From NCBI RefSeq assembly GCF_044324785.1, contig NZ_CP172127.1: DNA of 64,000 nucleotides. One strand, written 5' to 3'. Of the stretch, positions 1 to 62,736 are shown in pieces; the first letter of the stretch is position 1, and every line of letters starts with the position of its first letter. The notes under the pieces are model-generated. The model had not been told where the DNA came from. It searched no databases and worked only from the letters and a program-made list of their open reading frames with translations. This DNA comes from Escherichia coli. Its GTDB lineage: Bacteria > Pseudomonadota > Gammaproteobacteria > Enterobacterales > Enterobacteriaceae. The translations under genes were made by a program, and so were the position numbers.

Positions 1-168
1 CCAATTGATGAGCAAAAGACAATAACGAATTACTTGAGTGCAGCAACGATAAACATTGATTTACTGATTCAAGAGACTGATAAATCGATTGATCTTCTAA
101 AAGAACACCGCACATCGCTGATCAACGCGGCTGTCACAGGAAAAATAGACGTCAGGGAGGCGGTGTAA
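1..168 (+). CDS. hsdS: Type I R-M specificity subunit HsdS, C-terminal fragment (5' end outside window)
   Basis: Frame open from position 1 to TAA at 166-168; translation ends ...EHRTSLINAAVTGKIDVREAV, the conserved C-terminal helix of HsdS; stop overlaps the hsdR ATG (TAATG). Confidence 0.7.
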   Translation, partial: PIDEQKTITNYLSAATINIDLLIQETDKSIDLLKEHRTSLINAAVTGKIDVREAV

Positions 169-3100: not shown

Positions 3101-3404
3101 TCGCCGCCTAAACGAACTGTTTGGCGATGTCGGCGACGAACCCGGTCGCCGAAACTTTGCCAACGGTACTATTACGCGTGTCACCCAAAATCCAATTGTG
3201 GTTGAGCAGATAGAAAAGCACGACAAGTCGATTGCCCTCAAAGGCGACTTGCCGCAAGCGGTGAAGCAAGCCGTTGTGCAGGCTCTGCTGAAAGAAGGTG
3301 ATATAGCCCGAACGCTACTCAAAGACCCACAAGTTATGGCAAGTTATGTTGAGTTGATTTTTGACATGATGAAGCAAGGTGCAGAACAGGCGGCGGTGAA
3401 ATAA
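168..3404 (+). CDS. hsdR: Type I restriction enzyme R subunit HsdR (1078 aa)
   Basis: Long ORF with SF2 helicase motifs (EHSAGSGKTSTIAW Walker A, IIDEAH DEAH box) and N-terminal nuclease region typical of HsdR; immediately follows hsdS. Confidence 0.9.
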   Translation: MAAHHEVHFEQYITEQLVNNGWKEGHSCHYDQQRALYPQDVMDWVKATQPDAWHKLNKLHGVNAEQVLLERLEKALSSHKAGSKTGGTINVLRKGFTIAGCGTIAMGQRKPEDARNEERIARYEHNILRVVRQLKYCPTREWEIDLVFFINGLPVATAELKTDFTQSLESAIAQYKEDRLPVDPKTKRKEPLLTFKRGAVVHFAMSDTEIAMATKLAGENTYFLPFNKGHDGSTSDLPVHINLPGEDGEYPVSYFWQEIAQKDNWLRIFYSFVYVETKEVADSNGKVERKETQIFPRYHQLAAVNKMIDDARQNGAGMQYLCEHSAGSGKTSTIAWTAHDLIRLRSTDGKAVFKSVIIVTDRTVLDSQLQDAVQQLDHQYGVIKVIDREKSSESKSKQLTEALLTGTPIIVVTIQTFPYALEAILTNQSLAQSNFAVIIDEAHTSQTGSTAKGLRAALTLNLSPQELEQMSIEDILTKVQEARAMPKNVSHFAFTATPKHSTKMLFGRPKDPNQPVSDDNLPESFHLYTQRQAIDEGFILDVLENYTHYDTAYKIGENNLDEKRVDSKQARRALARWMSLHPTTVSQKVEFIIKHFKANIAHLLEGEAKAMVVTSGRPQAVKYKLAFDKYIKKHGIEGIQALVAFSGKVPGKDLGDEDSQDPLEIDFDKEYTEYNLNPDTHGADLRHEFEKTEYRVMLVANKFQTGFNQPKLVAMYLDKKISDVEAVQTLSRLNRTYPGKDTTFVIDFVNDPQTILNAFKKYDKGAQLNEVQDVNVIYDIKDILDEQNIYNHQDLELFKQARGKSILGQSPDKKSHAHKKLLAATQRPTDVFNVKLKELVDAANHWDQQYNKAHLAGDEKAANYAESQRSDFTKQREALMRFKSDLARFVKHYSYMAQLIEFGDPELENFAAFAHLLSRRLKGVTPENIDLSALVLEKFKIKYDKEPLPEAFNQVLEPIRPNYNDPADREQAFLADIIRRLNELFGDVGDEPGRRNFANGTITRVTQNPIVVEQIEKHDKSIALKGDLPQAVKQAVVQALLKEGDIARTLLKDPQVMASYVELIFDMMKQGAEQAAVK

Positions 3405-3958
3405 TGAATACTGCGTTTCGGGTTTTACTTACGTTCAATGCAACATCACTACTAGTGATTATCTTTGCGGTACAAAAAGGGTACTCACTCGGATATTTCT
3501 TTGGTGGTTTCGCTTGCTTCGATTGGATAGCAGCACTTCCGAACGCAGTATCATATTTACTCTATTTTCTTATCCCTGTTTTATCGACTGGATTGAGTAT
3601 TTGGCTGAGTAAGTATTTGGGTAAAGACGATTTTAAGGCGGGTGAAGTAGCGAGTATTGAGCATGCCAATAACAGCTTCCTACCAAGTTATTTGGGTTAC
3701 TTTTTCGTGGCGTTGAGCATTGGTAACTGGGAGACATTGTGGTTTGTTTATGGCGTTTTGTTTGTTTTTACTCTCTTATCGCAAGCACTCTACTTTAACC
3801 CATTGTTTTTACTGTTTGGTTATGAGTTTTATAACATTACAACCAAAAACGGAACGGCCATTTTCCTTATTAGCCGAGAGCGCTACAAGAAGCCAGATGA
3901 CATCGAAATATCATTGGCTTATCGAATCAATAATTACACATTTATCGAGCGAGGATAA
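3404..3958 (+). CDS. Multi-pass membrane protein (184 aa), first gene of candidate two-gene defence module (KwaA-like architecture, unverified)
   Basis: ATG overlaps the hsdR stop; 4-5 hydrophobic helices (LLVIIFAVQ, FACFDWIAALPNAVSYLLYFLIPVLSTGLSIWL, YFFVALSIGNWETLWFVYGVLFVFTLL, LFLLFGYEF); visibly AT-richer than hsdR. Confidence 0.6.
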   Translation: MNTAFRVLLTFNATSLLVIIFAVQKGYSLGYFFGGFACFDWIAALPNAVSYLLYFLIPVLSTGLSIWLSKYLGKDDFKAGEVASIEHANNSFLPSYLGYFFVALSIGNWETLWFVYGVLFVFTLLSQALYFNPLFLLFGYEFYNITTKNGTAIFLISRERYKKPDDIEISLAYRINNYTFIERG

Positions 3959-4800
3959 TGATGGACCATGTACTGGCACATATAAAAACTAGAGCAAAAA
4001 AACGCATTTTCAAATTGGTTTCTGATCAATCTCTTTTTGATACCGTCACAATCGACTTAAATGCCTGTATTCCATACAATCCAGACCATAACCTTGACGA
4101 AGACTCATGGTTTAAAATTGAAGACTTTAGTCAAAAAGAGTTTTGTATTGAACTGCTAAAAAAAGACTATGATTCAAAAGACTACGATGACTTAACCAAA
4201 GATAACTTCGCCAAGATCGCCTACTTATTTGCAATTCAAGGTAATGATTTTTACTTTCAAAAAATCACTCCAAGCCTATTCGTAAAACGCAAAACGCTTG
4301 TTTTTGGTGAAGCCGCAGAAATTGAGAAGAGCCAAACACGTTTAGTAATAAACGCCTTACCTGATGCAGTGTACTTCAAAGTGGCCGATACCTTGATATT
4401 CAAAAATCTGGCAACGATCTCGAGCATTTTTAAAGGTATCGATGAGTTGTACAAGGAAGCAACAAAAGAAGAAGTTGAGCAGTTTTTAGATGCACAGTTT
4501 ATAGAGTTGGGTAATGACTACAACGTAGATAGCGTCTCAAAACCTAATAGAAAACGTATTGGCCTTGCTATGGCAACACTTGATGCGATGTCTGCTGACG
4601 ATAAAGCTAACATGCTTGATTATATCGACGGTTACTGCGGTGAACAGAAGCTGAAATTCGATAAAGAAAATCAGAAGTTTGAAATATCTAATGACGATGA
4701 GTTGAAGTTACTGCTTTATGGCATTGAACAACGCTTCTATACGACCCCGTTTGGCAAAGAAAAAAGGCTCGCTAACTCTGTAACCGCTATGGATAAATAA
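3958..4800 (+). CDS. Soluble protein of unknown function (280 aa), second gene of candidate defence module (KwaB/DUF4868-like by architecture only)
   Basis: Start overlaps the upstream stop (TAATGATG); acidic, K/D/E-rich, no hydrophobic segments, no motif I recognise; AT-rich. Confidence 0.55.
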   Translation: MMDHVLAHIKTRAKKRIFKLVSDQSLFDTVTIDLNACIPYNPDHNLDEDSWFKIEDFSQKEFCIELLKKDYDSKDYDDLTKDNFAKIAYLFAIQGNDFYFQKITPSLFVKRKTLVFGEAAEIEKSQTRLVINALPDAVYFKVADTLIFKNLATISSIFKGIDELYKEATKEEVEQFLDAQFIELGNDYNVDSVSKPNRKRIGLAMATLDAMSADDKANMLDYIDGYCGEQKLKFDKENQKFEISNDDELKLLLYGIEQRFYTTPFGKEKRLANSVTAMDK

Positions 4801-4820
4801 TAGCCCATTATCAGTAACAT

Positions 4821-5870
4821 ATGAAGGTTGATTCAATGGCCGATAACATCCCACAAGCTCCTCAAGGTGAGTTTGTTCTTTTCACCAGTGCTGATGGTCA
4901 AACCCGCGTTGAGTGTCGTTTTGAGTCTGACACCTTGTGGCTTTCTCAGGCTGCAATGGCAGAGCTTTATCAAGTTAGCTCTCAAGCAATCACCCAACAC
5001 GTAAAAGCTGTCTATTCTGAAGAAGAGCTTGAGCAAATTTCAACTTGTAAGGATTACTTACAAGTTCAACTGGAAGGTGGCAGAGAAGTAAAGCGAAGCA
5101 TTCGTCACTACAGTCTTCCGGTTATTCTTGCAGTAGGATACCGAGTTCGCTCAACACGTGGCACCCAGTTCCGCCAATGGGCAACCAGAATGTTGCAAGA
5201 ATACCTAATCAAAGGATTCGTCATGGATGACGAGCGCCTGAAAAATCCGCCCATTGGCCATTCTGCTGTGCCAGATTACTTTGATGAAATGCTGGAACGC
5301 ATTCGTGATATCCGAGCTAGTGAGCGTCGCGTTTATCTGCGAGTCAAAGAAATCTTTACCATGGCTGCTGATTACGAGCCATCTAACCAAGAGACCAACC
5401 GCTTCTTCCAAACCATTCAGAATAAGCTGCATTATGCTTGTACGCATATGACGGCTGCTGAGCTTATCGCCAGCCGTGTGGATGCCAGTAAGCCGGATAT
5501 GGGCTTAACCAGCTATAAAGGCGATGAAGTGCGCAAGACAGACGTTACTGTTGCCAAGAACTATTTGCGTGAAGACGAAATCAAAGAGCTTAATCGCATC
5601 GTCAATATGTGGCTCGACTTTGCTGAAGACCAAGCACTGCGTCGCAAGCAGGTATTTTTACAGGACTGGGCCGATAAGCTTGACCAGTTCTTGAGTTTTA
5701 ACGATAGAGATGTATTAAACGGTGCAGGAAAAATCTCCAAGAAAGACGCTGATGACAAAGCGAAATTGGAGTTTGACCGCTTTGCCCAGCAGCGCCGTCG
5801 TTTAAAAGAAGCCGAAGGCGCACGGGCCAATATCGCAGCCCTCAAGGCCATACTAAAAAAAGATAAATAG
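4821..5870 (+). CDS. RhuM-family protein (alternative start at ATG 4836)
   Basis: N-terminal segment LFTSADGQTRVECRFESDTLWLSQAAMAELYQVSSQAITQHVKAVY matches the RhuM family N-terminal region as I recall it; 20 bp downstream of the preceding gene, same strand. Confidence 0.55.
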   Translation: MKVDSMADNIPQAPQGEFVLFTSADGQTRVECRFESDTLWLSQAAMAELYQVSSQAITQHVKAVYSEEELEQISTCKDYLQVQLEGGREVKRSIRHYSLPVILAVGYRVRSTRGTQFRQWATRMLQEYLIKGFVMDDERLKNPPIGHSAVPDYFDEMLERIRDIRASERRVYLRVKEIFTMAADYEPSNQETNRFFQTIQNKLHYACTHMTAAELIASRVDASKPDMGLTSYKGDEVRKTDVTVAKNYLREDEIKELNRIVNMWLDFAEDQALRRKQVFLQDWADKLDQFLSFNDRDVLNGAGKISKKDADDKAKLEFDRFAQQRRRLKEAEGARANIAALKAILKKDK

Positions 5871-9926: not shown

Positions 9927-10440
9927 ATGAATGCACGAAAGGCGGTACTGGCAGATAATCCGGAATTGATCCTGCGTTTGCTACAACTGAAATTTGACGA
10001 GACACTGTCGTACCCGCGCATTTCTGCACAGACCGGTGTCAGCAAAACCGCTATTTTTTCTCTGGTGAGGCGATTTCATCAGGTATTCACTGACGGGCAT
10101 CTTTCTGGTGAATATTCCTGCGTGCAACTGACCGGGCTCTTTTCCCGGGGCGATAATATTCAGCCCCGACAGTGACTCAGCCTGTAAAAACAGAGAAAAC
10201 CCGTCGGAACCGATTTTCACCAGAGTAAAAATGGAGACTTGTTCAGCAAACTCTTTTACCCGGAGCCTGTGTGGCCCAGATTGCACGAGAGTCTGGCATC
10301 AATGATAATGTTATTTTCAAATGGCTCAGACTCTGGCAAAACGAAGGGCGTGTTTCGCGGCGTCTTCCGGTAACAACCACTTCTGACGCAGGCGTTGAAT
10401 TATTACCTATGGAGATAACGCCGGATGAGCAGAAAGATCC
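9927..10440 (+). pseudogene. IS-type transposase N-terminal HTH remnant (two HTH segments in different frames; family uncertain, possibly IS630-like)
   Basis: MNARKAVLADNPELILRLLQLKFDETLSYPRISAQTGVSKTAIFSLVRRF (SD AAAGGA upstream) and, in another frame, MAQIARESGINDNVIFKWLRLWQNEGRVSRR; truncated where the ugpB remnant begins. Confidence 0.3.
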
Positions 10441-12918: not shown

Positions 12919-14451
12919 TCAGGTGCCGATTATGCCGCCGTCGGCTTTTACGATAACGACAGTTGAGGAGCGCGGACGACCAGCCTTATCGCCGTCAGGC
13001 CAGCTTGATACTGCCGTCGGATGCTGCGGATCGCTAAGCCCTTCGCTTGGCTCGCCAGGGTGCTGGATGTTAATAAACAGCGTCCGGTTATCCGGAGTGA
13101 ACGCGATGCCGGTGATTTCGCAGCCGCGCGGGCCGGTCAGGAAGCGGCGGAACTCATTGGTACCGGGGATCGTCGCCACCATCTGGTTGTTGCCCATGCC
13201 TTTGTAATCTTTAATATTTATGGTTGATGACGACACGTCGGTCTGGATCCATAGCACGCCGCGGTGATCAAAGCTCAGGCCATCGGCGCTGCCGAATTCC
13301 GCACCCTTCATGCTGCCTTTGGTTTCCAGTTTGTCTGTATCGGTGCGACCGCCCATCACAAGAATATCCCAGGCAAACTGCAGCGCGGTCGGGTCACCGT
13401 TATGCTCCAACCAGTGAATGATGTGGCCGTAAACGTTTTTGGCGCGCGGGTTGGCCGCATCCACTGGCGCTTTTCCTTCCTTACCGCGATCGCTGTTGTT
13501 GGTGAGCGTGCAGTAAACGCTGCCGGCGTGATATGGATCGACCGCAATCCACTCCGGGCGGTCCATTTTAGTGGCCCCCACGGCGTCTGCCGCCAGACGG
13601 GTTTTAATCAACAGGTCGCCCTGGTTTTCAAACCCTTTACTGGCGTCGAGCCCATTTTGTCCGAACACCAGCGGTAGCCACTCGCCTTTGCCGTCGTCGT
13701 TAAATTTCGCCACGTACAGAGTGCCTTTTTCCAGCAGGTGCATGTTGGCTTTGCGATCCTGCGGGTTGAATTTTCCTTCCGAGACAAATTTATATATGTA
13801 TTCGAATTTCTGGTCATCGCCCATATAGACCACAACGCGGTTATCCGGGGCAATTGTCACCGCTGCGCCTTCGTGTTTGATGCGACCAAGCGCGGTGTGC
13901 TTGCGCGGCACTGAATGCGGATCGTATGGATCGATTTCCACCACCCAGCCGAAGCGGTTCGGCTCGTTCGGCGTGGCGTCGACGCTGAACCTTTTATCCA
14001 CTTCGTTCCAGCGGTAAGAGTCGTCGCTCCCGCTGATACCGTAACGTTTTTCCAGCGGGTTCATCTCTGCTTTTTTTACGAAAATATCGGACCAGTTCTC
14101 TTCACACGTCAGATAGGTGCCCCACGGCGTAAATCCGTTGGCACAGTTCTGCATGGTGCCGAGAATGATTTCGCCTTTCGGATCGTCAACTGTTTGCATC
14201 AGTGGGTTATGCAGCGCCGGACCGGTGATTTTCATCGGCGTGTTAACGGTGATGCGGCGTGCGAACGATGACGGGCGCACCACTTCCCAGCCCAGGGGCA
14301 CTTTTTTTACTTCAATGACCGACACGCCCATCGCGTTCTGGCCTTTAAGAGCTTTATCGGCGCTCCAGTTGGCATCGCCATCTTTAAACAGTAGACCGTT
14401 ATCGATGTATTCATGGTTTATGGCAAGCAGGCCGTGATCGGAGCTGTTCCC
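12919..14451 (-). pseudogene. phoX: PhoX-family (DUF839-like) secreted phosphatase gene, 3' part, separated from its 5' part by the prophage
   Basis: Reading frame continues exactly from the fragment at 52793-53245 across the target-site duplication (...SLPQGGN | SSDHGLLAINHEY...); the first 16 codons of ORF 12919-14499 are phage-end derived. Confidence 0.65.
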
Positions 14452-14500
14452 TGATGCGCCGCGCGATAAATGCACTCTATCTTGTGCGATAAATGGCATC
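14452..14500. repeat. Prophage left terminus with two putative transposase-binding motifs
   Basis: GATAAATG at 14465-14472 and 14488-14495; mirrored at identical offsets at the right end. Confidence 0.6.
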
Positions 14501-21379: not shown

Positions 21380-22548
21380 TTTTTCTTCTCTCTTATTACT
21401 GTGGACGTGCTGCCGTCCGGTTTATAGATGGTCAGCATCCGGGTTTTGCCGATTTTTTTACCTTTCTTCGCCTTGCCCTGTGTGATCGGCCCCCGTGCCA
21501 CTTCCAGCTCTGTGGTGTAGCCGCTGTTACGGTCAAACGCATGGCGGGCAGTGGTTATGAGCCATGGCCCGGATAACTGCCCAAAACCCACCAGTTCAAT
21601 TTTGTTGCCTGCTGTCAGTTGAGGTGTTCCCGTCAGCGTCAGGGAGCCGTTCTGCTGGTATTCGTTATGTCTGGCCAGTGCTGAATCCGCTTTAATCCGG
21701 GCACTGTCCGGGTCGCTGACGCGGCTGTTAACTTTAAGTGAGTCAGCGCTGGTAACCTTACCACCTTTGAGCTTTTTGTCGCTTTCACGGGTACCACCAT
21801 CAGCTTCGTAGACGATCAGTTTTTTACTGCTGCTTTTCTGGTGTTTTACCTTTGCAGATTTATAGACCCGGTTGATGGTGTCACGCAGGGAAAAGCGGGC
21901 CACATCCTGCGGTTTTAACTGCCTGACCGGCTCCTGACTGCGCAGTGTGGCCAGATGAGAAAAAATCAGCTGGTCACTGACCACTTTCACTGCATAACCA
22001 TACTCGCTGGCCAGCCGGCGCAGAAAACCCACGTCGGTTTCAGCATACTGGGTCACCCGGTCGATTCTGATGGACTCAATGCTGCCCACCAGTTTCAGCC
22101 GGTGCTTTCTGGCAATCCGCCCCGCAACAGCTGCCAGCGTGGTGTTCTCAAAACCACGACTGGTTTTAGTCCGCAGGGCACTGTTAACCGAGGTGGCCAC
22201 CCCACGGATAGAAACAACGGAAGCGGGCGAACTCACTTCGATCTCGTCTATAGAGAACGTACCGCAGGACAGCAGCTTCTCGTCCTGATAGCCCATTTTC
22301 AGCGTCAGCGTGTCACCCTTGCCCGGATACCACTTATCCAGCCAGCGGCCATCGGTGTCGTCCAGCTCCACCTCAATGGTATCGGACTCATTTTTGATGT
22401 TATCGCTCCAGGTCACACGGGTGACATAAGGCGCGATATCAGAGGTGATGTTTTTCTGCAGATACCACAGAGTGAACACCGGTGTCAGCACATCGCTGAC
22501 GCCGGTTAACGCTGATGTGACTTGCGCAGTGCTGTTTATCTCAGCCAT
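21376..22548 (-). CDS. Baseplate hub protein (P2 gpD / Mu gp44-like)
   Basis: 390 aa, position after tail protein X. Confidence 0.7.
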   Translation of the reverse strand: MAEINSTAQVTSALTGVSDVLTPVFTLWYLQKNITSDIAPYVTRVTWSDNIKNESDTIEVELDDTDGRWLDKWYPGKGDTLTLKMGYQDEKLLSCGTFSIDEIEVSSPASVVSIRGVATSVNSALRTKTSRGFENTTLAAVAGRIARKHRLKLVGSIESIRIDRVTQYAETDVGFLRRLASEYGYAVKVVSDQLIFSHLATLRSQEPVRQLKPQDVARFSLRDTINRVYKSAKVKHQKSSSKKLIVYEADGGTRESDKKLKGGKVTSADSLKVNSRVSDPDSARIKADSALARHNEYQQNGSLTLTGTPQLTAGNKIELVGFGQLSGPWLITTARHAFDRNSGYTTELEVARGPITQGKAKKGKKIGKTRMLTIYKPDGSTSTVIREKKK

Positions 22549-22751
22549 GGGGCAATATCCTCTTCTGTACGGGCTTCTTCAGCCTCAATCACCGGGATCA
22601 GTAACAACAGCCCGGAGGGCAGCACCGGCGTGATGGCCACGTGCGGATTGGCGGCAATAATCCGGGGATAGCCCAGCGGGTCACCGTAGTACTGCCATGC
22701 CAGCGAATCCCAGCGCTCTCCGTCACGGGTAACATGTTCAAGAAACATCAC
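22536..22751 (-). CDS. Tail protein X-like (small LysM-like)
   Basis: 71 aa with WDSLAWQYYGDP...IAANPHV...GLLLLIP pattern. Confidence 0.7.
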   Translation of the reverse strand: MMFLEHVTRDGERWDSLAWQYYGDPLGYPRIIAANPHVAITPVLPSGLLLLIPVIEAEEARTEEDIAPWLR

Positions 22752-23632: not shown

Positions 23633-26600
23633 CAGCGGTACTCCTTACGTTGTTTCTGAGCCAGCAGACGCTCCAGCATTTTTTCCAGCTCATGCAGACT
23701 CATATTCAGGGCACCAGTCAGTCCTGCAGGCGCTGTGGTTTCCCTGCCATTGAGGAAAAACTGAGGATTAAAGCTGACCTGGATACCACCAGACGTTCCA
23801 CCGCCGGTTGCAGCTGCACCACGGCCTGAATATCCGGCAGCCAGGATTTCAGGCGAGGGGATACGGGGAACATCCGGTGTCATCTCATTTGCCAGACGTT
23901 GCCCTGGTAAAATCGATGCCCGGGTGGAGAGCGGAATAACGGGCATGGAAGACAAACTATTGATTACGGCTCCGATCGCATTTTTAGCAGACGACATAAA
24001 CCCATTGATATCGGGCAACGGCATACTGAAGCGAACACCTGAAGTGTTATCCCGTATTTCTGGCCCCTGAATGCTCACGGGCATTCTGGGGAGCAGTTCA
24101 CTGGCCATTCGCTGCCCGGCCAGAGCTGCAAGCGGAGTGGTCCGCTGCAGGCCAATGGCGGCCCCCTGCGCGATATTGTCACCAAAGCCCATAAACACGC
24201 GGCTCGGCGAATGAATGCCCAGCTTTTCGCTGAACCAGCCACTGATGCTGTCACCCATTCCGGTTACACTGGATTTGAGCGACTCCCATTTGTTTTTGAT
24301 ACCGTTAATCAGACCGTCGACAAGATGGCCACCGAAGTCGGTGAACTTTGCCGGCAGATCAACACCAAGATATTTCAGCGCAGCTGCAAAGGCTTTATAG
24401 AGCAGACCTGCCGGCGACCAGTTAATCAGCAGCTTACCAGTTCCCGCGATACCGCCGTTAAAGGCTTCCTGAATGTCAGCCCAGCACTGTTTAAACCAGC
24501 TACTGATGCTGTCACCCATTCCGGTTACACTGGATTTGAGCGACCCCCATTTGTTTTTGATACCGTTAATCAGACCGTCGATAAGATGGCCACCGAAGTC
24601 GGTGAACTTTGCCGGCAGAGCAACGCCGAAATATTTCAGCGCAGCCGCAAAGGCTTTATAGAGCAGGCCTGCCGGCGACCAGTTAATCAGCAACTTACCA
24701 ATTCCCACAATGCCGCCGTTAAAGGCTTCCTGAATGTCAGCCCAGCGCTGTTTAAACCAGCTACTGATGCTGTCACCCATTCCGGTTACACTGGATTTGA
24801 GCGACCCCCATTTGCTTTTGATACCGTTAATCAGACCGTCGATAAGATGGCCACCGAAGTCGGTGAACTTTGCCGGCAGAGCAACGCCGAAATATTTCAG
24901 CGCAGCCGCAAAGGCTTTATAGAGCAGGCCTGCCGGCGACCAGTTAATCAGCAACTTACCAATTCCCACAATGCCGCCGTTAAAGGCTTCCTGAATGTCA
25001 GCCCAGCGCTGTTTAAACCAACCACTGACAGCCCCCCAGTTGCGGTAGATAAGGTAAGCTGCTGTCGCGACAGCGGTGATAACGAGACCGATGGGATTCA
25101 TCATCAGCGCTCGCCCAATCCAGAGAACGGCACGTGCAGCGCTCATAAAACCGCGAACGAGGCTGCCCGCCAGAACTTTGCTGAGTTTCAGTCCTCCGCT
25201 GGTCAGTCGGCTGAATCCAGTGACAAGCCAGCGTAATTTGCCACCTTCTCCGAGTGCGGTAGTCAGTCGATGCCAGTTGGTCCGGAGTAAAACAGTAGTT
25301 TTCCAGACGTTCACAAAGGGGGAAATAAGGAGATTCAGCCCCAGTTTGAGACCAATAGTCGCTATCTTAATCGCAAGGAGCGCACTGATGAGCTTAAAAG
25401 CCCCACTGACAAATTGCGGGTGAGTCGCTACCCAGTGTTTTGTCCCCTGAATGAGTGGGAGCAGTTCCTGAGTCAGAGAAATAAAAGATGGAGCTAATTG
25501 ATCGCCCAGCGTAATTGCCAGATCGCGACTGCTGACCATAAGTGTTTTAGTGGCTTCAAGGGGAGATTTCAGCCGCTGATCATAAGCACTGGCAAGCAAA
25601 TCGTTATCCGCAGCCCTGAGAGCACCGGCACGGATCTCTCGATATCTGTCCATGTTGGCCAGCATCGGGCGGATAAATGCCATGACCTGCATATCCGCGA
25701 ACATATCGCCCAGACCAAAGTTTTTCGCCAGAGCCTGAAGTGCCTCATCTCTTGCCGTATCATTCTTTATTTTCATGGCTGATTTGAAGCCGGCCAGCGC
25801 TTCGGGGCTTTTGGCATTGAGGTAACGTTCTATAACACTCAACATCCCTTCAATCGGAGAGATCCCCGCAGCTTTATAACTCGCAATAGATCCCTGCAAA
25901 TCAATACCCAGATCAGCAAACTGTTTCTGAGTATCGCGGGCAAAAATTTTGGTAAGAAAGTTTTTAAAATTATTGGCTGCTTCGTCGGTGGAACCTGCAC
26001 CGATTTTTGCTATCTGGAGACTGGCCCCGATTTCAGCAACAGCCTCTTTTCCACTGGCAAGACCCGCCATCATTGGGGCCAGGGACTGCATCCACTTGAC
26101 CTGATCCGGGATTTCAAATGACCCCTGGTCACCGGCATAAGCCATAATATTCTGAACGGCACCAAAATCTCTGGCCGCACCTTTCAGGGAGTTTTGCCAG
26201 ACTGCGGCCACTTTTGCCCAGTCCTGAGCAGACGTGCGTGTTGCCGTTGCCGCGCGGGCAATATCCGGCATCAGAAAACCGATATCTGACACATTATCAA
26301 TATTGTCGCTGATGAGTGAACCCACCGCCTCCTGCAGCTCATCCTGATACTGATTGTATTTAAGCGCCCAGCCTTTTATCTGTCCGGCAAGTGCATCCCG
26401 CGTTTTATTGTCATATTTTGCGGTGATCGACATATCAATCATTTTGTCCTGAAAAGACATGGACTGCTGAACGGCAGGGGAAACCGTATGATAAACAGTC
26501 TGTGCCATGCCATACGCTTCAATCCCCTGACCATACAGCGCCATGCGGTTAGCTTTCAGCGCATCACTGGTAGCGGATGCCGCTGACAGACGGCGCTGCT

Positions 26601-45108: not shown

Positions 45109-46878
45109 ATGAATGCTGCCCTGACTGAACGACTGGTTTATGTCGCCCGCGCGGCACGTGACGCGGGGCATGGTAAACGCGGCGCAGTATACGACGCTGC
45201 CTGTGCTGAACTTGGCATGTCCCGCGCCACTCTGCTGCGCAGGCTGAAGGAGGTATCTGTGACTGATAAACGCAAAAAACGCGCCGATGCCGGGCGCAGC
45301 GCCCTGACCCGCGACGAAGCCGCGCTGATATCTGCCACACTGCGTGAGGCCACCCGCAAGAACGGTAAGCGTCTCTATTCCATCGCGGATGCAGTGGAAA
45401 CCCTGCGGGCTAACGGCTTTATATCCGCAGGCAGAACAGATGAAACCACCGGTGAGTTTTTCCCGTTGTCCGAAGATGCCATCAGCCGAGCCCTGCGTAA
45501 CTATGGCCTGCACCCGGAACAACTGGATGCCCCTGCGCCGCATACCGAAGTGGCCAGTCTGCATCCCAATCATGTCTGGCAGATTGACGCCTCACTCTGC
45601 ACGCTTTACTACCTGAGCAATGGACATAAAGGGCTGCAGGTGATGGACAGCGCGAAGTTCTACAAGAACAAGCCCGCTAACCTTGCCCGTATCGCCAGTG
45701 ACCGCGTGTGGAGTTACGAGATTACCGACCATGCCAGCGGCTGGATTTACGTTGAGTATGTGACGGGCGCGGAATCAGGTGAGAACCTGTGTTCTGTGCT
45801 TATCAACGCCATGCAGGAGCGTGGCGGCGCAGACGTGCTGCACGGTGTGCCGAAAATACTCTATCTCGACCCCGGCTCGGCAAACACCGCGGGTATGACG
45901 AAAAACATGTGCCGCTCACTGGGCATCGACCTGATAGCGCACAAGCCGCATAACGCCCGCGCCACCGGACAGGTGGAAAAGGCGCGGGACATTATCGAAC
46001 GCAAGCTGGAGCCGGGTCTGAAGTTCCGGCCGGTTCACAGTCTGGAAGAACTCAACGCGCTGGCCGCGAAATGGCGCAGCCACTTTAACGCCACGGCTGT
46101 TCACAGCCGCCACGGTAAAACCCGCACGGATATCTGGCTGAAGATTACTGCTGAGCAGCTGAAAAAAGCGCCTTCCGTTGAGGTATGTCGTGAACTGGCT
46201 GTGGCGGCACCAGAACTCCGCAAAGTCACGCCAAAACTTCGTGTCTCGTTCCGGGGCACTGAATTTGACGTATCAACGGTACCGGGCGTACTGGTTGGTG
46301 AAAAACTGATGATTACCCGTAACCCGTGGCGCAGCGATGTGGCACAGGTGGTTCTGACCGGTGAGGACGGCCACGAGACGTTCTTCCTGGTCGAAGAGGT
46401 CAGAAAGAACGAGTTTGGCTTTGCTGAAGGCGCGGCGGTATTTGGCGAAAGTTACAAAGCCCTGCCGGAAACCCCGGCGCAGATGGCGGCAAAAGAAACC
46501 GAAGCGCTGGTCACCGGTACAGACAACGCCGCAGATGCAGCTGCCGCACGCAAGGCGAAGGCGCTGCCGTTCGGCGGGCGGCTTGACCCGTATAAACATA
46601 TCGACGACACCACACTTCCGGCCTATATGCCGAAGCGTGGTCAGGCCTCTGACGTACGCGGGCCGCGCACTGAACAACGTCCCATGACTTATGTGGAGGC
46701 CGCGAAAGCCCTGCGCGATAAGTTCAGCGCCAACGGCTTTACCTGGACGCTGGAACATTACCGCCAGTTAACGGCACAGTATCCGGACGGCGTACCGGAA
46801 GCCGCACTGGATGAAGTCATGGCCACGCTGACCACGCCGGCCCGCAGCAGCGTTATCAGTATTGTTAACGGCAACTGA
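45109..46878 (+). CDS. Mu-type DDE transposase (A protein)
   Basis: 589 aa with integrase-core region (HVWQIDASL...) followed by the B-like ATPase gene. Confidence 0.8.
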   Translation: MNAALTERLVYVARAARDAGHGKRGAVYDAACAELGMSRATLLRRLKEVSVTDKRKKRADAGRSALTRDEAALISATLREATRKNGKRLYSIADAVETLRANGFISAGRTDETTGEFFPLSEDAISRALRNYGLHPEQLDAPAPHTEVASLHPNHVWQIDASLCTLYYLSNGHKGLQVMDSAKFYKNKPANLARIASDRVWSYEITDHASGWIYVEYVTGAESGENLCSVLINAMQERGGADVLHGVPKILYLDPGSANTAGMTKNMCRSLGIDLIAHKPHNARATGQVEKARDIIERKLEPGLKFRPVHSLEELNALAAKWRSHFNATAVHSRHGKTRTDIWLKITAEQLKKAPSVEVCRELAVAAPELRKVTPKLRVSFRGTEFDVSTVPGVLVGEKLMITRNPWRSDVAQVVLTGEDGHETFFLVEEVRKNEFGFAEGAAVFGESYKALPETPAQMAAKETEALVTGTDNAADAAAARKAKALPFGGRLDPYKHIDDTTLPAYMPKRGQASDVRGPRTEQRPMTYVEAAKALRDKFSANGFTWTLEHYRQLTAQYPDGVPEAALDEVMATLTTPARSSVISIVNGN

Positions 46879-50667: not shown

Positions 50668-50872
50668 ATCTGTTGTATGTGCCCTGTTCTGGTATTGTTT
50701 TGTCGGTTGGTGTACTGCTGAACTGCACCGCCGTTCAGGGTTTTATTCACGTTACAGTGGTGCTGGCTACTGGATTAGCTGGTCGGTGATGTTCCTGTGC
50801 TGGCCTGTGGCGCTTCCTTTATATGTCGATTATATCGGTGGCGCAGGTAAAAGGAGCAACGATGATGACTAA
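50664..50872 (+). CDS. Small membrane protein (2 TM)
   Basis: VVCALFWYCFVGWC and WSVMFLCWPVALPLYV hydrophobic segments. Confidence 0.35.
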
Positions 50873-51314
50873 ACAACGTCTTATCCAGCTCATTCATATT
50901 GCCCGTAATGAACTGGGTATGGATGAAGACACCTACCGCCAGATGTTACAGGGGCTGACCGGTAAAGCCTCAACCAAAGGAATGGATACCACACAACTAA
51001 ACTGCGTGCTGGAATCCATGAAAAGGAAAGGCTTTCGCGTTAAGCCTGCCGGAAAAGCCAGCTCCGGTTTACCGCTGGATAACCATCCGCAGTCCAGGAA
51101 AATCCGTGCGCTATGGCTTGAAATGGCTGCTGCCGGCATTGTTCGTGACCGTTCAGAAAATGCATTAGCGCGGTGGATCAAGCGGGAAACGGGCATCAGC
51201 GCCCTGCGCTGGCTCAGTACTGAACAGGCAAGCAGTGTTATTGAGAAACTGAAGAAGTGGCAGCGCAGAGCTGCGGGAGTCAAACATGAGCGACCTGAAT
51301 CAGTTTCGAAGTAA
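50862..51314 (+). CDS. gemA: GemA-like regulatory protein (Mu gp16 family)
   Basis: SD AGGAG before ATG; position immediately before Mor; size ~150 aa. Confidence 0.6.
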   Translation: MMTKQRLIQLIHIARNELGMDEDTYRQMLQGLTGKASTKGMDTTQLNCVLESMKRKGFRVKPAGKASSGLPLDNHPQSRKIRALWLEMAAAGIVRDRSENALARWIKRETGISALRWLSTEQASSVIEKLKKWQRRAAGVKHERPESVSK

Positions 51315-52744: not shown

Positions 52745-52792
52745 TCGTTATTTATCTCACGGATCCCCCTTCATTTATCTCATGTCTGATCA
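52745..52792. repeat. Prophage right terminus with two putative transposase-binding motifs (inverted relative to left end)
   Basis: Reverse complement reads TGATCAGACATGAGATAAATGAAGGGGGATCCGTGAGATAAATAACG; motifs at + 52772-52779 and 52749-52756. Confidence 0.6.
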
Positions 52793-53245
52793 GTTCCCGC
52801 CCTGCGGCAGGCTAAACCACGCCATGCCGTCGTGGTGCATCCCGGCCTGCGCCGCCTGTTCTTCCGTGGTGTTGCTACCGTCGGTTTTAAAAACCGGCAG
52901 ATTTCCGGCAATCCCGGTGGCGTCGCCCCATTTGTAGAAGGGCTTCGCGATGTATCCTTCCGGCACGATAACGGTATCTTCCGTGGAAACCGGCAGGCTG
53001 GTGAAACCGAGCGTCGTCGCTTTGCCGAGGTTACCGCTTGCTTTGGAGACCACTTTCGCCAGCGCGTTTTCCTGTTTCAGCAGAAATGGGAACGCTGCCG
53101 CGGCACCGGCGACCGTGCCTGCCTGTAACAGACGGCGGCGTGACAAATAGACTTCCGCCACCTGCGAAAACGCGCGGTTATCGCTCGGGTTACTGATTTC
53201 TTCACTATGCTCACGTTTGAATAAAGTTTTTAACGGTCTGCCCAT
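52793..53245 (-). pseudogene. phoX: PhoX-family secreted phosphatase gene, 5' part (Tat signal), separated from its 3' part by the prophage
   Basis: Twin-arginine motif SRRRLLQAGTVAGAAAAFPF; frame terminated by TGA supplied by the prophage terminal TGATCA. Confidence 0.65.
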
Positions 53246-55426: not shown

Positions 55427-56621
<1,195 letters not shown>

Positions 56622-56981
56622 TTAACGTTATCCGCTGACGTCGATATTCCCGTGGTGAGAGATAACCTAACGCACTATGCGGATGGTTTTCATTGTAATG
56701 CTCGAACGCCTCTGCAAGGTTATGCAATGCCGTTATTACATTCAGTTTCGGCATGAACGCGATGTAGTCTTCATTCACGTTTTCACGAACCTTTCTGCCA
56801 TTCTATTGCTCTGAGGGCTACTGACTGCCGTCGTGCAGGGCTCCAGATTCAACTCTCTGGCGAATTGCCGTGTTTCATGAGCCGTATAAGCCGAACCGTT
56901 ATCCGTCCGCCACTGGATTGCTCGTTCCGGTCCTTTATCGCCAAAGCGTTTTTCTATCGCTCCTAACATCACATCCTGCAC
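56622..56981 (-). pseudogene. IS2-like (IS3-family) transposase OrfB C-terminal remnant, frameshifted and cut by IS5
   Basis: ...[45 protein letters not shown] and ...[43 protein letters not shown] in two frames; reading continues into the IS5 end. Confidence 0.55.
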
Positions 56982-57403
56982 TGTCGGCTTTATCGTAACC
57001 TCCCGTACTGGTCACGGGCAGACTGTTCATCATGTTAAACCCAGCCGCTGTCAGATCATGCACCGGCCGGATGGCGGGCTGACCTGCCCCGCCGCGCTGC
57101 TGCCCGCCAATCCATTTCTTACCTTCCTTCCCGGTGGCCTGACGTCCGGCCTCGTCCCCTTTCACCGCATCACCGTCACCGCTGTTCACCACCTTCTTGT
57201 ACTCTTCCAGCATCGCTGGCCTGCGTCCATTTGCTGCGATCAGAAAAGTCCATCATCCGTTTTGCCATGTTCTGGCAGTTCAGTTACGCCTTGTCGAAAG
57301 CCACATTCGCCTGCAGCACACCGTTGGTGATCATGTCGTACAGGCCGGGGTTGGCACGCTGTATCACCATCGCCGGCAGACTGGCAGCGGCGCCGGTCGC
57401 CCC

Positions 57404-57745
57404 CTAAATCACATCCCCCATCAGATTTTTAAAGCCGTCGGTCAATCCGTTAAGATGATTACCCACCGTGGTCTTCAGGTCAAAGTTGCCGCACATCAGA
57501 TCGCTGCTCCAGCCCAGGTCCATACCCAGCTTCTGCATGTTGCTGCGCGTGGCCAACTGTGAGATCACCGAGCCGCCACCCAGCGTATAGAACAGTTTGT
57601 CGGATACGGCGCCATCCACGGATTTCCCGTAACCGAACGTGCTGTCATTCAGTTTCGGCAGGGAAAGAAGATCAGCCATCGCCGGAATACTGCAGTACAG
57701 CATCACACTCAGTGCCACCATACCTGTTTTCATCTTCATCATCAT
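57404..57745 (-). pseudogene. Conjugative-transfer TraH-like protein, N-terminal remnant
   Basis: Signal peptide plus ...DLKTTVGNHLNGLTDGFKNLMGDVI; ORF ends prematurely relative to TraH-size proteins. Confidence 0.35.
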
Positions 57746-57751
57746 GGTTCC

Positions 57752-58726
57752 TTAAAAATTCGTACTGCCAAGGAATCGCTGCCCGCGCTTTTCGAAGCAG
57801 CTGTAAGGCTGCCACAGTGCAAAGGCTGCATTACCGTTCTCCGCCGCCTGGTGTTCACCATCCGGGAAAACGGCACAGGAACGCGACACTGACGGCGTCA
57901 GTCGCTGCCATTTGTGATTGCGGGTGCCGGTGTTTTCCTCCACCGCCTCCGGGGGCCAGTAGCCGTCACGTTTCACGCCCTTAACCTCCCTGTAGACATG
58001 CGACTCCCCCATCCGCGTGATAATGTCGGCCACCCGCTGAGCCCCCACCGCCGCGGCCCGGTCATCATCGCTCTGCATCACAAAACCACTCCGGTGATAA
58101 ACGCTCCCCCACATGTTTTTATCGGCCTAGCTGCCAATCTCGCGTTTGCCGGGAACCTGTGCCTCTGGATACAGGGATTCAGGTAATCCCGTTCGCTAGA
58201 CGATGCTGTCCAGGGTACTGAGGAAATAGGCCATGGCCGGTGTCACCGGTGAATCACAGCTGAATCCGGGTACCATCCCGCCGATAAGCTGTGTGGCCGG
58301 ATGACCCAGCGCATCTGCATATTTGAAACGAATTGCTGAACGGCGCTTCCCCTGTATTTTCATATCCGCCGGATTTCCCCCGCCGGCACTCAGCCCGGAC
58401 AGGCCGTCAGTGATGGCATTCTCCGGGCCACCTGCGGTCCGGCTGACCAGCGACATCTCTTTCCAGGGATTACCACCCGGTGCCGTATAGGTGGAAATAA
58501 CCACTTCCGGGATGAAATGTGTCACCTTCACGGAAATTCTGACCGTACAGCCAGACGCGCTGCAGTAAAGCCAGTAACAAATCCCGCTGACACGCCAGCT
58601 GATATAGTCCGGTGCCGCAGTACTGGCGATAATGCTGGCGGTGTTCAGTGATACAGACGCCAGGGGCAGTGATGCCACACTCAGTAACAGCACGCCGGTA
58701 CGCAGACGACATTTCAGGGACATCAT
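57752..58726 (-). pseudogene. Conjugative-transfer TraU-like protein, split by frameshift
   Basis: Two consecutive ORFs (58196-58726, 57752-58114) with Cys-rich segment GICYWLYCSASGC and TraU-like C-terminal pattern. Confidence 0.35.
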
Positions 58727-58839
58727 GGCTGCACTCCTCCCTCAGCACGGATTTTCCCGGCCATCACCACATCCATGGTGCCGTAAACCACCTCACTGTC
58801 ATCAAACACCACGGCAGGGTATTTCTTCACGCCCAGCGA

Positions 58840-59118
58840 CTAGGCATGTGCCACATCGCGGTAATGACCGGCCAGTTCCGCCTGCATCGTCTGCCATTCG
58901 GGAGACTTCATACGTACCCTGACCACCGATTCAGCCTCACCCGCATCAGCAGGCAACAGGCCCCAAAAGCGGCTCTGAAGCTGCTCAGGCGCATCCAGCA
59001 GAACCACCCTGACACCATCAGGAGGATTAACGGGAAGATGCTGAGAATCGGTATAAATTGTTGTGCCGGCAGACGCTGCCAGCGGCAGGAAAAACAGGGA
59101 ACAGAAAATCCGGTACAT
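58840..59118 (-). CDS. Small exported protein (92 aa), possible transfer-region protein
   Basis: N-terminal signal peptide MYRIFCSLFFLPLAASAG. Confidence 0.3.
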   Translation of the reverse strand: MYRIFCSLFFLPLAASAGTTIYTDSQHLPVNPPDGVRVVLLDAPEQLQSRFWGLLPADAGEAESVVRVRMKSPEWQTMQAELAGHYRDVAHA

Positions 59119-59313
59119 CGTACACCTCAGTCAGATATTATCTGACTGACAGCGTGCGAAGAAAGCGCTCATTTATCAGCAATAAATTAAAAACGGGATT
59201 AAAAAATTACGGTGGGATCCGGGGAAGTGTATCTGCCAAGCATAACAGACAGTCTGTGATTATACCCGGCCTTTCACAAAGCCGGGGAACTGATTCATAC
59301 CAAGTGGTGATTT

Positions 59314-59565
59314 TCAACAATAAGTATAATGAGGTTGTCCCGGCACCGGTGGCAGTGGTTCGAGATAGACGTCATCAACAAAAACACAGGGGAATTTTTC
59401 AACTGCACATCCAGCACGCTCAGACATTACCTTCAGACTGATACCATGTTTCTCAGCATCAATAAAGAGGACATCTGCCCCTGTTTCATCCCGGAGATTT
59501 GTCGCATGATGCATGATCCGGTGTACTGAAGGACATGTTTTGTAACCAAAAACACATATACGCAT
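59314..59565 (-). CDS. Glutaredoxin-like small protein (CPxV variant)
   Basis: MRICVFGYKTCPSVHRIM ... KFPCVFVDD fits the glutaredoxin/NrdH fold pattern with the second active-site Cys replaced. Confidence 0.4.
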   Translation of the reverse strand: MRICVFGYKTCPSVHRIMHHATNLRDETGADVLFIDAEKHGISLKVMSERAGCAVEKFPCVFVDDVYLEPLPPVPGQPHYTYC

Positions 59566-60051
59566 GTTGCACCTCCTGATCACTGGTTGACGCCGATAAT
59601 AAAACAATAATGTGAGCGTAAAAAATGCACCTCATACCACATTTCTGTAAAAGGCTCTGGCTATCACTGCAAAAAGCAAAATCTTAATTCCAGCATCACT
59701 TGTTACTCTCATTCCGTCACTTATATTTACCCACATGGCGATGTATTTAATTACTGCCCATAAGAATAAAAGCCGCTGGCGGATTATTTCTTTATTACCC
59801 GGATGCGGTCACAAGCCCACACATCGTCAACTACCTGCCGGTAATATTAACTGTCAGAAGAACGCATACATCCGGATGTTTACAGAGTCGCGCGCCTGGT
59901 CACAGGTGACAACAGAAGTATGCCATACTAAAGGAGTAAACGGCGGGTCACTGGTGATCAAACACCTGCATCGTGTGTTGCTGCCACTGCCCTCAGGTGA
60001 CAGAGGCAGCATCTTTACGTATTATAATGCGTTATATCGGGTTTGTTGTTA

Positions 60052-62139
60052 TCAGAACTGATAGTTCAGCGACATCCAGTAATTTCTCTCAGGTATCACA
60101 TAACCCGTTGTCGATGCCCCCGTCTGGAAGTAATCACCCGCATAAAGCGTACCACTGCCGGCACGATACAGACTTACGTCACTGTAATCCTTGTTAAGCA
60201 CATTATTCACCGCTGCATTCAGCATCAGTGCATCCGTCACTTTCCACGACATGCCCGCATCCAGTACCGTCCAGGCTTTCAGATATTCACCTTTCTCATC
60301 ATACACTTTCTTCTGTACAGCTGAGAGTGACGAATAATTCTGGGTGAAACGTGGCGTTTTCCCGCGGTAACGGGCACCCAGCCATGATGTCACCTCTTCA
60401 GTAATCTGCCAGTTCAGTTTCGCATTCACCATATGCTCAGGGGTGTAACTCAGTGGTGCACCTTTATTATCCCCATCCCGTTGTTCACTCTGCGTCCAGG
60501 TATAATTCAGAGACAGAGTCACATCCTCTGACAACAGAGGCAGTGTGCCGGCAAATTCCACGCCCTGAGTCCTAGCCTTTCCGCTGTTTGTGTAGCTGCG
60601 GGTATTATCATCAATGGAATAAGATACGATCTTGTTGGAGAATTCTGTCATAAAGCCCGTGATATTGGCGTTCAGACCGGCATGATTATCGTAATACACG
60701 CCCGCTTCATAACTGACACTCTCCTCCGGCTTCAGGTCCGGGTTACCGAGAAGATTCGTACGCCCCTGACCGGACACACCGCTGATCCCCTTATGTAACT
60801 GCCCCATGCTGGGCGCCTTATATCCCGTGGTCACCCCACCTTTCAGCGTCCACGCATCAGTCACATCCCAGACCATATATGCCCGGGGACTGAAGTGTCC
60901 TCCGAACACCTCATAGCGTTCATAGCGGCTACCCGCAGTCAGTGCAAATGCATCCGTGATATACCACTCATCCTCAACAAATGCCGACCAGCTTTTCTGA
61001 CGGAAGGTTTCACCAGTACTGGCGAGAACAACCCCGTCTTTCATGGAGGAGTTCTGATACTCACCACCGACGGTAACCTTGTGTGATTCCCCCAGAGGTG
61101 CAAACAGTAATGAGCTCAGGATAAGATTCGACTCCTTAAGCTCCCTCGGCTGGCCGGCAAGCCCCCATTTATCACGCTGCAGTACGCTACGTACAAGCTG
61201 ACGGCCTTTATTTTCCGTCTCATTCCAGTTCAGAGATGACTTCCAGGCTCCGAAGGTGAATGTATGATCATAGCCTGCTGAAATTTTATTACGCTCATAG
61301 CGCAGGGTGCGATCATAACCGCCCGTCAGACTGCCCAGCTGGCCATCTCGGTTATCATAACGCTGCCGGGCGATATCCATATCAATCCAGAGTACATCCT
61401 TGTCCGTCGCTTTCCAGTCAAGACGACCACCTGCATTATAATTCTGTGATTCCGTGGGATAAGGGATACGCGTAGCTGAGGTGTCGCTCAGTGATGTGAC
61501 CGATGAGCCCTGACGCTGCTGTGTGCTGCCACGTACCTGAAGGCTGAGTGAATCATCCACAAGGGGACCGCTGCTCCAGAAATTAAACTGGCTGCTGTTC
61601 CCCCATTTGTTACTTTCCTGCAGGTTCAGCCCGGCATTAACCGAAGAGCGCCATTTGTCTGCATTCTTTTTGGTGATGATATTCACCACGCCCCCCATGG
61701 CATCAGAGCCGTACAGAGTGGACATGGGGCCCCTGATAATCTCAATACGTTCGATGGCGGCCAGAGGTGGCATAAAACCCGTATTCATGGCAGCATAACC
61801 GTTTGGGGTTACGTCACTGCTCCCGCCCTGACGGACACCATCGATCAGTATCAGCGTATAACTGGCAGGCATTCCGCGGATGCTGATTTCCAGCCCACCT
61901 GTTTTACCCGTACCGCTTTCAACATCCACCCCCTCTACGGATCTCAGTGCCTCCCCCAGATCATGATACTGGCTGGATCGCAAATCCTCCTGGCTGATCA
62001 CTGAAACACTCGCAGCTGCACTGGTTAATTTTTTTTCATAGCCAGACGCCGTGACTACCATCACATCTTCCGCAGCCATACTGCTGACTGAAAACCCGAG
62101 ACAAGGGATGGCTACTGAAGCCAGAGTGGTTACTCGCAT
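60052..62139 (-). CDS. TonB-dependent outer-membrane siderophore receptor, IrgA/Iha-like (695 aa)
   Basis: Signal peptide, plug-domain motifs ([26 protein letters not shown]), C-terminal aromatic residue (..NYQF); Fur box upstream. Confidence 0.8.
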   Translation of the reverse strand: [695 protein letters not shown]

Positions 62140-62188
62140 ATCTTCTCTCCGATTATATTAATCAGAGAGAAGATAAACAAACGCAAGA

Positions 62189-62207
62189 GATAATGAGAAT
62201 GATTTGC
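62189..62207. promoter_or_regulatory. Putative Fur box upstream of the TonB-dependent receptor gene
   Basis: GATAATGAGAATGATTTGC matches the 19-bp Fur consensus GATAATGATAATCATTATC at 15/19 positions, ~50 bp upstream of the start codon. Confidence 0.5.
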
Positions 62208-62451
62208 TTTTGGTTTTTACATAAAAAAGCAAAAAATTACAAAATATTACATAAGGTTCTACTATACCCCGAATTTCAGTTGAGGACGTTCTTTTCTCTA
62301 GGGGAAAGTAACGGATAGCAATCGTTGACGATCCATATCGGATTTTTGCACTATGGGTATTTATCCAATCTTTATCAGTTTCTTGTCCTTGGATATGTTA
62401 ATCATACACTATCGGATATTTCGTACATCAGACAGGTGAATATAATTAATA

Positions 62452-62736
62452 ATGAGGAGTTTTATGGACAATAGAACAATTACTCTGCAGGAATTACTCG
62501 AGTACATGTCAATGCTTCGAGACGACATGAATGCTCTCACGGTTGCATTTTCATATCTGGCTTCATCGCTTCCTAAGGAACAGATGATACAAATACTGGC
62601 ATTCATTCATTTTGAATCAAATAATTCCAGATGGTCTTCAGAACAGCAGAAATCTTTCAAATGGCTAGCATCACTACTGGAGGGCTGTTATACAGTTCAC
62701 ACAAACATTTTTGATATACCATCAAAGAACCACTAG
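62452..62736 (+). CDS. Hypothetical AT-rich orphan ORF (94 aa)
   Basis: ORF in strongly AT-rich DNA with plausible SD (AGGAG) upstream. Confidence 0.3.
   Translation: MRSFMDNRTITLQELLEYMSMLRDDMNALTVAFSYLASSLPKEQMIQILAFIHFESNNSRWSSEQQKSFKWLASLLEGCYTVHTNIFDIPSKNH

Follow-up and report, generated by a model that had tools for sequence, protein, structure and literature searches.

How did pieces of conjugative transfer genes come to lie beside an intact iha receptor gene on an Escherichia coli chromosome, and can they still serve in conjugation? The stretch of DNA that was analysed, hereafter the window, measures 64,000 nucleotides and is E. coli chromosome: many complete genomes, that of strain XDL among them, match positions 56900-59700 with 100% identity. 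A preliminary description of the region had proposed the remains of a transfer region, consisting of TraH-like, frameshifted TraU-like, signal-peptide and glutaredoxin-like ORFs and left over from a decayed ICE or an integrated plasmid. Every ORF in that description does exist, on the minus strand, where the transcription order over 57003-62139 is iha, the glutaredoxin-like ORF, TIGR03757/DUF1525, TIGR03756/TraU and the 5' part of TIGR03755 (Table 1). From the sequence comparisons presented below, segment 57003-59198 is very probably a non-functional relic of an ICE of the SPI-7/pKLC102-PAGI-2/ICEHin1056 lineage, which would have carried iha as cargo and been reduced by IS-associated deletion within a pheV island. 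No match was obtained when the region was scanned for Rfam families and tRNAs, the window as a whole containing no tRNA, and promoter and terminator scans of the region stayed at chance level.

Table 1. Features of the relic and its surroundings, in order along the window
Feature	Coordinates	Strand	Basis
IS5 copy, InsH at 55459-56475	55428..56621	+	Cuts the IS3-family fragment
IS3-family (IS2-like OrfB) transposase gene, internal fragment	56622..57002	-	NCBIfam NF006918, E 4e-24 and 3e-19
TIGR03755-family ICE pseudogene, 5' 739 of 1419 nt left	57003..57745	-	NCBIfam; codon alignment to the intact MS15052 gene
TIGR03756/TraU-family ICE pseudogene, full length, 325 codons	57752..58726	-	Profiles; codon alignment; PGAP 'internal stop' in XDL
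TIGR03757/DUF1525 ICE pseudogene with signal peptide	58723..59118	-	Profiles; codon alignment
Final ICE-derived stretch, 80 bp, upstream of TIGR03757; homology stops at 59198	59119..59198	-	BLASTN against ICE relatives
Segment of 780 bp without counterpart in related ICEs; holds the glutaredoxin-like gene	59199..59978	.	BLASTN
Gene for a Grx1-derived protein, 83 aa, intact	59314..59565	-	NCBIfam GrxA; PDB 1ego; dN/dS; homologues
iha cassette common to the MS15052 ICE; iha CDS 60052-62139 intact	59979..62253	-	NCBIfam NF010012; BLASTN; dN/dS

Similarity to transfer proteins, on which the preliminary description depended, was far beyond chance, with NCBIfam E-values from about 1e-17 to 1e-47 for families TIGR03755, TIGR03756 and TIGR03757. 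The signal-peptide ORF could be assigned to TIGR03757 (E 5.5e-17) and to Pfam DUF1525 (1.4e-13), the two TraU-like ORFs matched TIGR03756 (E 5e-46 and 2e-47), and TIGR03755 was matched by ORFs 57404-57745 (E 1.8e-23) and 56935-57213 (E 5.7e-22). TIGR03757, TIGR03756 and TIGR03755 form a signature of the SPI-7, pKLC102-PAGI-2 and ICEHin1056 elements, and their remnants were found here consecutively and on the same strand; each fragment scored under its curated cutoff because the gene is broken. ICEs of this lineage use a GI-type (MPF_G) T4SS, and their examples in E. coli include ICEEc2 and ICEEc8.

Intact relatives were sought at the DNA level by a sensitive comparison with 5,426 complete E. 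coli genomes, in which matches were binned by their identity to the relic. The relic at 99% identity or more was present in 59 records; a further 20 matched at 95-99% and 6 at 90-95%, and beyond these came numerous ICEs that are more remote. The closest intact relatives, with 94-96% nucleotide identity, were complete chromosomal ICEs of the SPI-7/pKLC102 type located at pheV. One of them, in E. coli MS15052 (a 95.6% match in the search), has all three genes intact. BLASTN of window positions 57003-59198 against this ICE gave 95.0% nucleotide identity over 2196 bp in the same order and orientation, and the iha cassette (window positions 59979-62253) was matched at 93.4% over 2275 bp, also in the same orientation. 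The MS15052 ICE is complete, with a length of about 78 kb, and occupies the tRNA-Phe gene pheV (NZ_CP082097, about 3314.5-3392.6 kb). Its gene content comprises mobility genes (an integrase, a relaxase with TraI domain, a UvrD helicase and TraD), transfer genes (a type IVB pilus with a PilV shufflon, the T4SS set TIGR03744-03752 and TraG_N), as well as an SPI-7-type DnaB, ParA/ParB, topoisomerase III and replication proteins of the STY4528/STY4534 families. The comparison of synteny with ICE transfer regions, suggested earlier as a check, was thus borne out, since the three genes and iha follow one another in the same order in this element, with iha directly upstream of TIGR03757. Unlike the relic, the MS15052 ICE has intact genes, a complete backbone and, between TIGR03757 and iha, an unrelated spacer of 385 bp lacking the glutaredoxin-like gene.

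In MS15052, iha lies inside the T4SS operon, with the ATPase and a 128-aa gene on one side and TIGR03757 on the other. Sister ICEs without iha were found in APEC E19035 (94% identity) and strain G8 (80%), and their ATPase block directly adjoins TIGR03757, which indicates that iha is an insertion at that intergenic spot. The insertion in MS15052 is flanked by a 77-nt direct repeat with 91% identity between its copies, the source of which is the 3' terminus of the 128-aa gene. Since iha is cargo of the same operon in an intact relative, its position next to the transfer genes in the window is historical rather than accidental. The E19035 ICE, intact and with the same T4SS gene set, belongs to the same family, its 94% identity extending over the relic; it may correspond to ICEEc2, an iha-less element of the pKLC102/PAGI-2 family described from APEC BEN374. 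The MS15052 ICE is probably of the published ICEEc8 type. ICEEc8 measures 86 kb, is inserted at pheV and encodes conjugation functions and a type IV pilus; in STEC O117:H7 it carries iha (Montero et al. 2019, PMC6455142). Transfer has been demonstrated experimentally for this family in E. coli: in a 2026 study, ICEs at pheV/pheU both conjugated and brought about Hfr-like transfer of the chromosome (PMC13127887, citing Roche 2010, which described ICEEc2). The kind of element, its pheV site and its link with iha have therefore all been published already.

The surroundings of the relic bear the marks of deletion. Its TIGR03755 gene is truncated at 57003, exactly where the IS3-family transposase fragment starts, and this abutting fragment (labelled 'integrase core domain, frameshifted, incomplete' by PGAP) marks a deletion junction. 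In place of the neighbouring IS5 copy, strain XDL has 842 bp that the window lacks. In XDL, the relic-bearing island is located at the tRNA-Phe gene pheV, the same site as that of the MS15052 ICE, and includes a tyrosine recombinase; this island is large and mosaic, riddled with IS elements, and its genes include those for aerobactin as well as sit, sodC and nanXY. No other ICE backbone was detected in the window or in the roughly 128 kb that surround the relic in XDL, and searches of both for the TIGR03744 ATPase, TraD, TraG_N and TIGR03745-52 were equally negative; neither an ICE-type relaxase nor an integrase homologous to that of MS15052 was found in the window or the XDL island. As the T4SS set is missing from both sequences, the locus has to be considered a relic and not a member element.

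These observations are consistent with the following sequence of events. In the ancestral ICE, iha would have been cargo of the operon for mating-pair formation, lodged where the TraC-like ATPase block meets TIGR03757. This ICE, or a piece of it, would then have reached a mosaic pathogenicity island at pheV, where IS-associated deletions may have removed the whole backbone of about 78 kb except TIGR03757, TIGR03756 and the 5' part of TIGR03755, that is, the genes lying directly downstream of iha. Purifying selection acted on iha and may also be what preserved the adjoining ICE DNA, in which the three passenger genes for transfer would have drifted and accumulated stops and a frameshift. The direct ancestor would be an unsampled variant, given that its junction between TIGR03757 and iha measures 780 bp and is unrelated to the shorter one of MS15052, the only intact iha-bearing relative inspected.

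A less probable course, although one that deserves some credence, is that recombination, either homologous or mediated by IS elements, copied iha and the adjacent ICE DNA into the pheV island, the block being already truncated when it arrived. Only two ICE-derived blocks, amounting to 4.5 kb, occur in the window and the XDL sequence, IS debris is found at both flanks, and pheV islands have been described as highly mosaic (PMC11537424), all of which would suit such an import. An intact IS end, as expected of a composite transposon, is however missing from both flanks, and the island occupies the attachment site of the intact relatives, which makes decay in place the simpler route. We therefore lean towards an ICE that decayed where it had inserted rather than towards the import of a fragment.

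The second origin raised in the preliminary description, an integrated plasmid, appears highly improbable, whether an F-like transfer region or another one of the TraU/TraH/TraW/TrbC type is considered. It draws on Pfam TraU (PF06834), which was matched by both TraU-like pieces (E 6e-20 and 3e-16; 72.3 and 60.0 bits against a gathering score of 26.5) and, at 186 bits (E 1.4e-54), by the intact TIGR03756 orthologue, so that the TraU-like identity proposed earlier was upheld. Additionally, the order ATPase, small gene, DUF1525 and TraU recalls traC-trbI-traW-traU of F. Nevertheless, although TIGR03756 and the F protein share this Pfam family, BLASTP similarity to F TraU was marginal (E 0.012), the families matched are the ICE-specific TIGR0375x set, and the best plasmid matches to the three genes reached only 65-71% nucleotide identity, compared with 94-96% for chromosomal ICEs. 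Of the two origins proposed, it is the ICE that the identity levels, the ICE-specific families and the adjacent iha favour.

The TraH-like label could not be upheld. Neither the TIGR03755 fragment nor the intact orthologue of 472 aa matched Pfam TraH (PF06122) at E<=0.1, and BLASTP against F-plasmid TraH gave E 2.2, that is, no similarity. A comparison by hhalign of a 27-sequence TIGR03755 profile, whose diversity is low (Neff only 1.9), with F TraH returned a probability of 0.3%. Likewise, a Foldseek search of the PDB with an AF2 model of TIGR03755 found nothing, the model being of low confidence (pLDDT 57, below 50 in the N-terminal half), and the literature search on this family gave no useful result. 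The gene should be named after family TIGR03755. Its position before TraG_N is reminiscent of the traH-traG order, and it is possible that its product is functionally analogous to TraH.

All three transfer genes are damaged. The alignment of TIGR03756 with its intact orthologue, over 975 nt, was free of gaps and the two TraU-like ORFs end in the same phase; a frameshift was consequently rejected, and the gene described earlier as split over two frames is a single frame interrupted by two TAG codons, at W177 (TGG>TAG, 58196-58198) and Q200 (CAG>TAG, 58127-58129), in line with the internal stop annotated by PGAP. Conserved cysteines of this TraU homologue are also replaced with respect to the intact orthologues (C>Y and CC>CF). 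The TIGR03757 ORF is cut early by one in-frame TAG at W93 (58840-58842). The most heavily affected gene is TIGR03755, whose remnant runs past 57404, where the earlier description had it begin, down to 57003, and aligns to nt 1-739 of the intact gene, the 3' 48% being lost. It contains two stops, Q113>TAG (57404-57406) and Q153>TAA (57284-57286), and a frameshift caused by the insertion of one nucleotide (+1 C) near 57219. The decay thus amounts to five nonsense mutations (four TAG and one TAA), one +1 frameshift and one truncation. Each of the nonsense mutations is a G:C>A:T transition, the type that arises spontaneously most often, and none calls for a special explanation.

Rates of substitution pointed in the same direction: dN/dS was 0.33 for the relic TIGR03756 against 0.15 for a pair of intact genes, a relaxation based on few substitutions, and 0.69 against 0.54 for TIGR03757, where counts were small. 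In the genomes inspected, PGAP already gives TIGR03756 and TIGR03757 pseudogene status on account of internal stops, and it lists the first TIGR03755 ORF as coding for a hypothetical protein. Given the stops, the frameshift, the truncation, the loss of conserved cysteines and the absence of every partner T4SS gene, the transfer genes cannot function. That they might still be expressed by stop-codon read-through, or act as separate polypeptides for another T4SS in trans, has a negligible likelihood: TAG accounts for four of the five stops and the TIGR03756 and TIGR03757 frames are otherwise intact and without indels, but TIGR03755 is frameshifted, shortened by nearly half and interrupted by a TAA, the TraU homologue has lost conserved cysteines under relaxed dN/dS, the island holds no partner T4SS genes, and we know of no natural amber suppression system in E. 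coli that would allow such read-through.

The glutaredoxin-like gene had been counted as part of the transfer region. This assignment has to be withdrawn, since the gene sits in the 780-bp segment that is absent from related ICEs. Among complete E. coli genomes, this segment was restricted to the roughly 59 that bear the relic, and no intact ICE containing it was found. A role as an ICE accessory gene was likewise rejected, the gene being absent from the ICE relatives and its homologues lying in BON/DoxX or catalase-peroxidase/SodC settings. Judged by its sequence context, the gene appears as cargo and not as ICE backbone.

It is nonetheless a real gene under purifying selection, as shown by a strong canonical AGGAGG Shine-Dalgarno site and by a dN/dS of 0.12 over 71 codons in comparison with an E. 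coli paralogue of 69% identity, in which CPSV is kept. Its product aligned colinearly with residues 1-69 of E. coli Grx1 (PDB 1EGO, E 6e-4) and matched GrxA in NCBIfam (E 6e-8), its scores for NF008401 and TIGR02183 remaining under the cutoffs (32.7 against 84 and 26.3 against 106.5, respectively). The alignment with 1EGO retains strand beta1, the Cys-Pro and the cis-Pro strand, the latter reading VETVPQIFID in Grx1 and VEKFPCVFVD (with KFP) in the present protein. In place of the glutathione-binding turn (GG/TxxD) and the C-terminal helix of Grx1, the protein has a conserved tail that is rich in Pro and has Cys as its last residue (EPLPPxPGxPxYTxC), and the same type of tail terminates a distant homologue, also of 83 aa.

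The reported substitution of CPSV for CPxC was confirmed, C11-P-S-V standing against C11-P-Y-C14 in Grx1. The designation as a monothiol variant holds in the formal sense that the N-terminal active-site cysteine alone is kept, a situation mimicking the engineered monothiol form C14S of Grx1 (1GRX/1QFN); it does not extend to membership of the class II monothiol glutaredoxins, whose CGFS site is replaced by CPSV in this protein and by CNLT in the distant homologue. The Grx1-derived family is tiny: 5.8 billion proteins yielded 13 clusters and 1.8 billion yielded 7 representatives, and a PHROGs search with the protein found nothing. Family members are encoded between BON and DoxX genes or near catalase-peroxidase and SodC genes, and these neighbours hint at a redox role.

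The iha gene itself is intact. Its product, a TonB-dependent iron receptor and adhesin of 695 aa, is full length (NCBIfam NF010012, 1538.7 bits against a cutoff of 924, covering residues 1-695 of 696), and a dN/dS of 0.14 relative to the ICE allele indicates purifying selection. It is a divergent allele, with 86% nucleotide and 90% amino acid identity to classical iha, and with 93% and 95%, respectively, to the allele of the MS15052 ICE. The backbone and iha have diverged to a similar extent from this ICE (5% and 6.6% of nucleotides), which is consistent with a long co-residence. Beside classical iha, in JJ1886 and in the O157:H7 strain H6437, no traces of an ICE were found, just a transposase fragment. 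We may tentatively propose, while considering it doubtful, that iha entered and spread in E. coli as a discrete cassette of about 2.3 kb within transfer operons of SPI-7/pKLC102-type ICEs, the classical loci resulting from later decay.

As a whole the locus is an ordinary feature, a relic of a known kind that was already annotated as pseudogenes. For one divergent iha allele, it indicates that an ICE brought in the virulence gene and that, of this element, nothing was kept but the DNA in physical linkage with the gene under selection. Such a passage from ICE to pathogenicity island is textbook knowledge, and the wider importance of the locus is small. The one uncharacterised item at the locus is the CPSV glutaredoxin-derived family, which is rare, conserved and encoded near oxidative-stress genes. 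The relic could serve as a marker of this pheV island lineage in the tracing of avian and human ExPEC. If the tentative scenario of iha spreading as an ICE-borne cassette were true, the iha genes of the O157 TAI and of the ST131/CFT073 pheV islands would represent later stages, and the present allele, with its 2.2 kb of ICE operon, would be a preserved intermediate.

The iha allele of the window (60052-62139) was divergent, showing about 86% nucleotide and 90% amino acid identity with classical iha, which is represented by about 1,536 records (O157:H7, ST131 and others). Identity with the allele borne by the intact ICE of E. coli MS15052 reached 93% at the nucleotide and 95% at the amino acid level. 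At the classical iha loci inspected no ICE remnant was seen, the sole feature downstream of the gene being a transposase fragment. In the MS15052 ICE (sequence L002), the iha insertion is flanked by a 77-nt direct repeat (22488-22564 and 24892-24968) whose copies are 91% identical and which duplicates the 3' end of a 128-aa gene located downstream of the ATPase gene. A target site duplication was ruled out as the source of this repeat because of its excessive length and its divergence.

Upstream of the window iha, a 90-aa ORF for which no family match was found lies beyond the ICE-homologous block, in DNA of low GC content (38%). An inverted repeat of 17 nt (62139-62175; 94% complementary, 3-nt spacer), whose first position coincides with the initial base of the iha initiation codon, runs upstream from there; it may be a regulatory site.

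Coordinates (window) of annotated features
Feature	Position	Remarks
Type I restriction HsdR-like gene	168-3404	Defence cluster, first gene
KwaA-like gene (Kiwa)	3404-3958	Defence cluster, after the HsdR-like gene
KwaB-like gene (Kiwa)	3958-4800	Defence cluster
RhuM-family gene	4821-5870	Defence cluster, last gene
Mu-like transposable prophage	14452-52789	About 38.3 kb
MuA-like rve transposase	45109-46878	Mu-like prophage gene
MuB-like AAA	46862-48055	Mu-like prophage gene
GemA	50823-51314	Mu-like prophage gene
90-aa ORF	62464-62736	Upstream of iha; hypothetical protein WP_000370415.1 in the annotation of strain XDL

Elsewhere in the window, a defence cluster spans positions 168-5870. The Mu-like prophage splits a PhoX-family phosphatase gene into two halves (12919-14499 and 52790-53245), and was found at this site neither in XDL, a strain with the same ICE relic in its pheV island, nor in any complete E. 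coli genome of the collection. An IS5 copy (55428-56621) stands in place of 842 bp of XDL that include an SgcJ/EcaC-family oxidoreductase gene, which looks like an insertion accompanied by an adjacent deletion.

Homologues of the CPSV glutaredoxin-like protein were encoded next to oxidative-stress-type genes at two other loci. In L003, an island of E. coli, the homologue (10001-10294) is accompanied by genes for DoxX and BON-domain proteins, and in L016 the homologue (1391-1642) adjoins catalase-peroxidase and Cu/Zn SodC genes. In the distant homologue, CNLT replaces CPSV and the tail EPLPPxPGxPxYTxC is kept.
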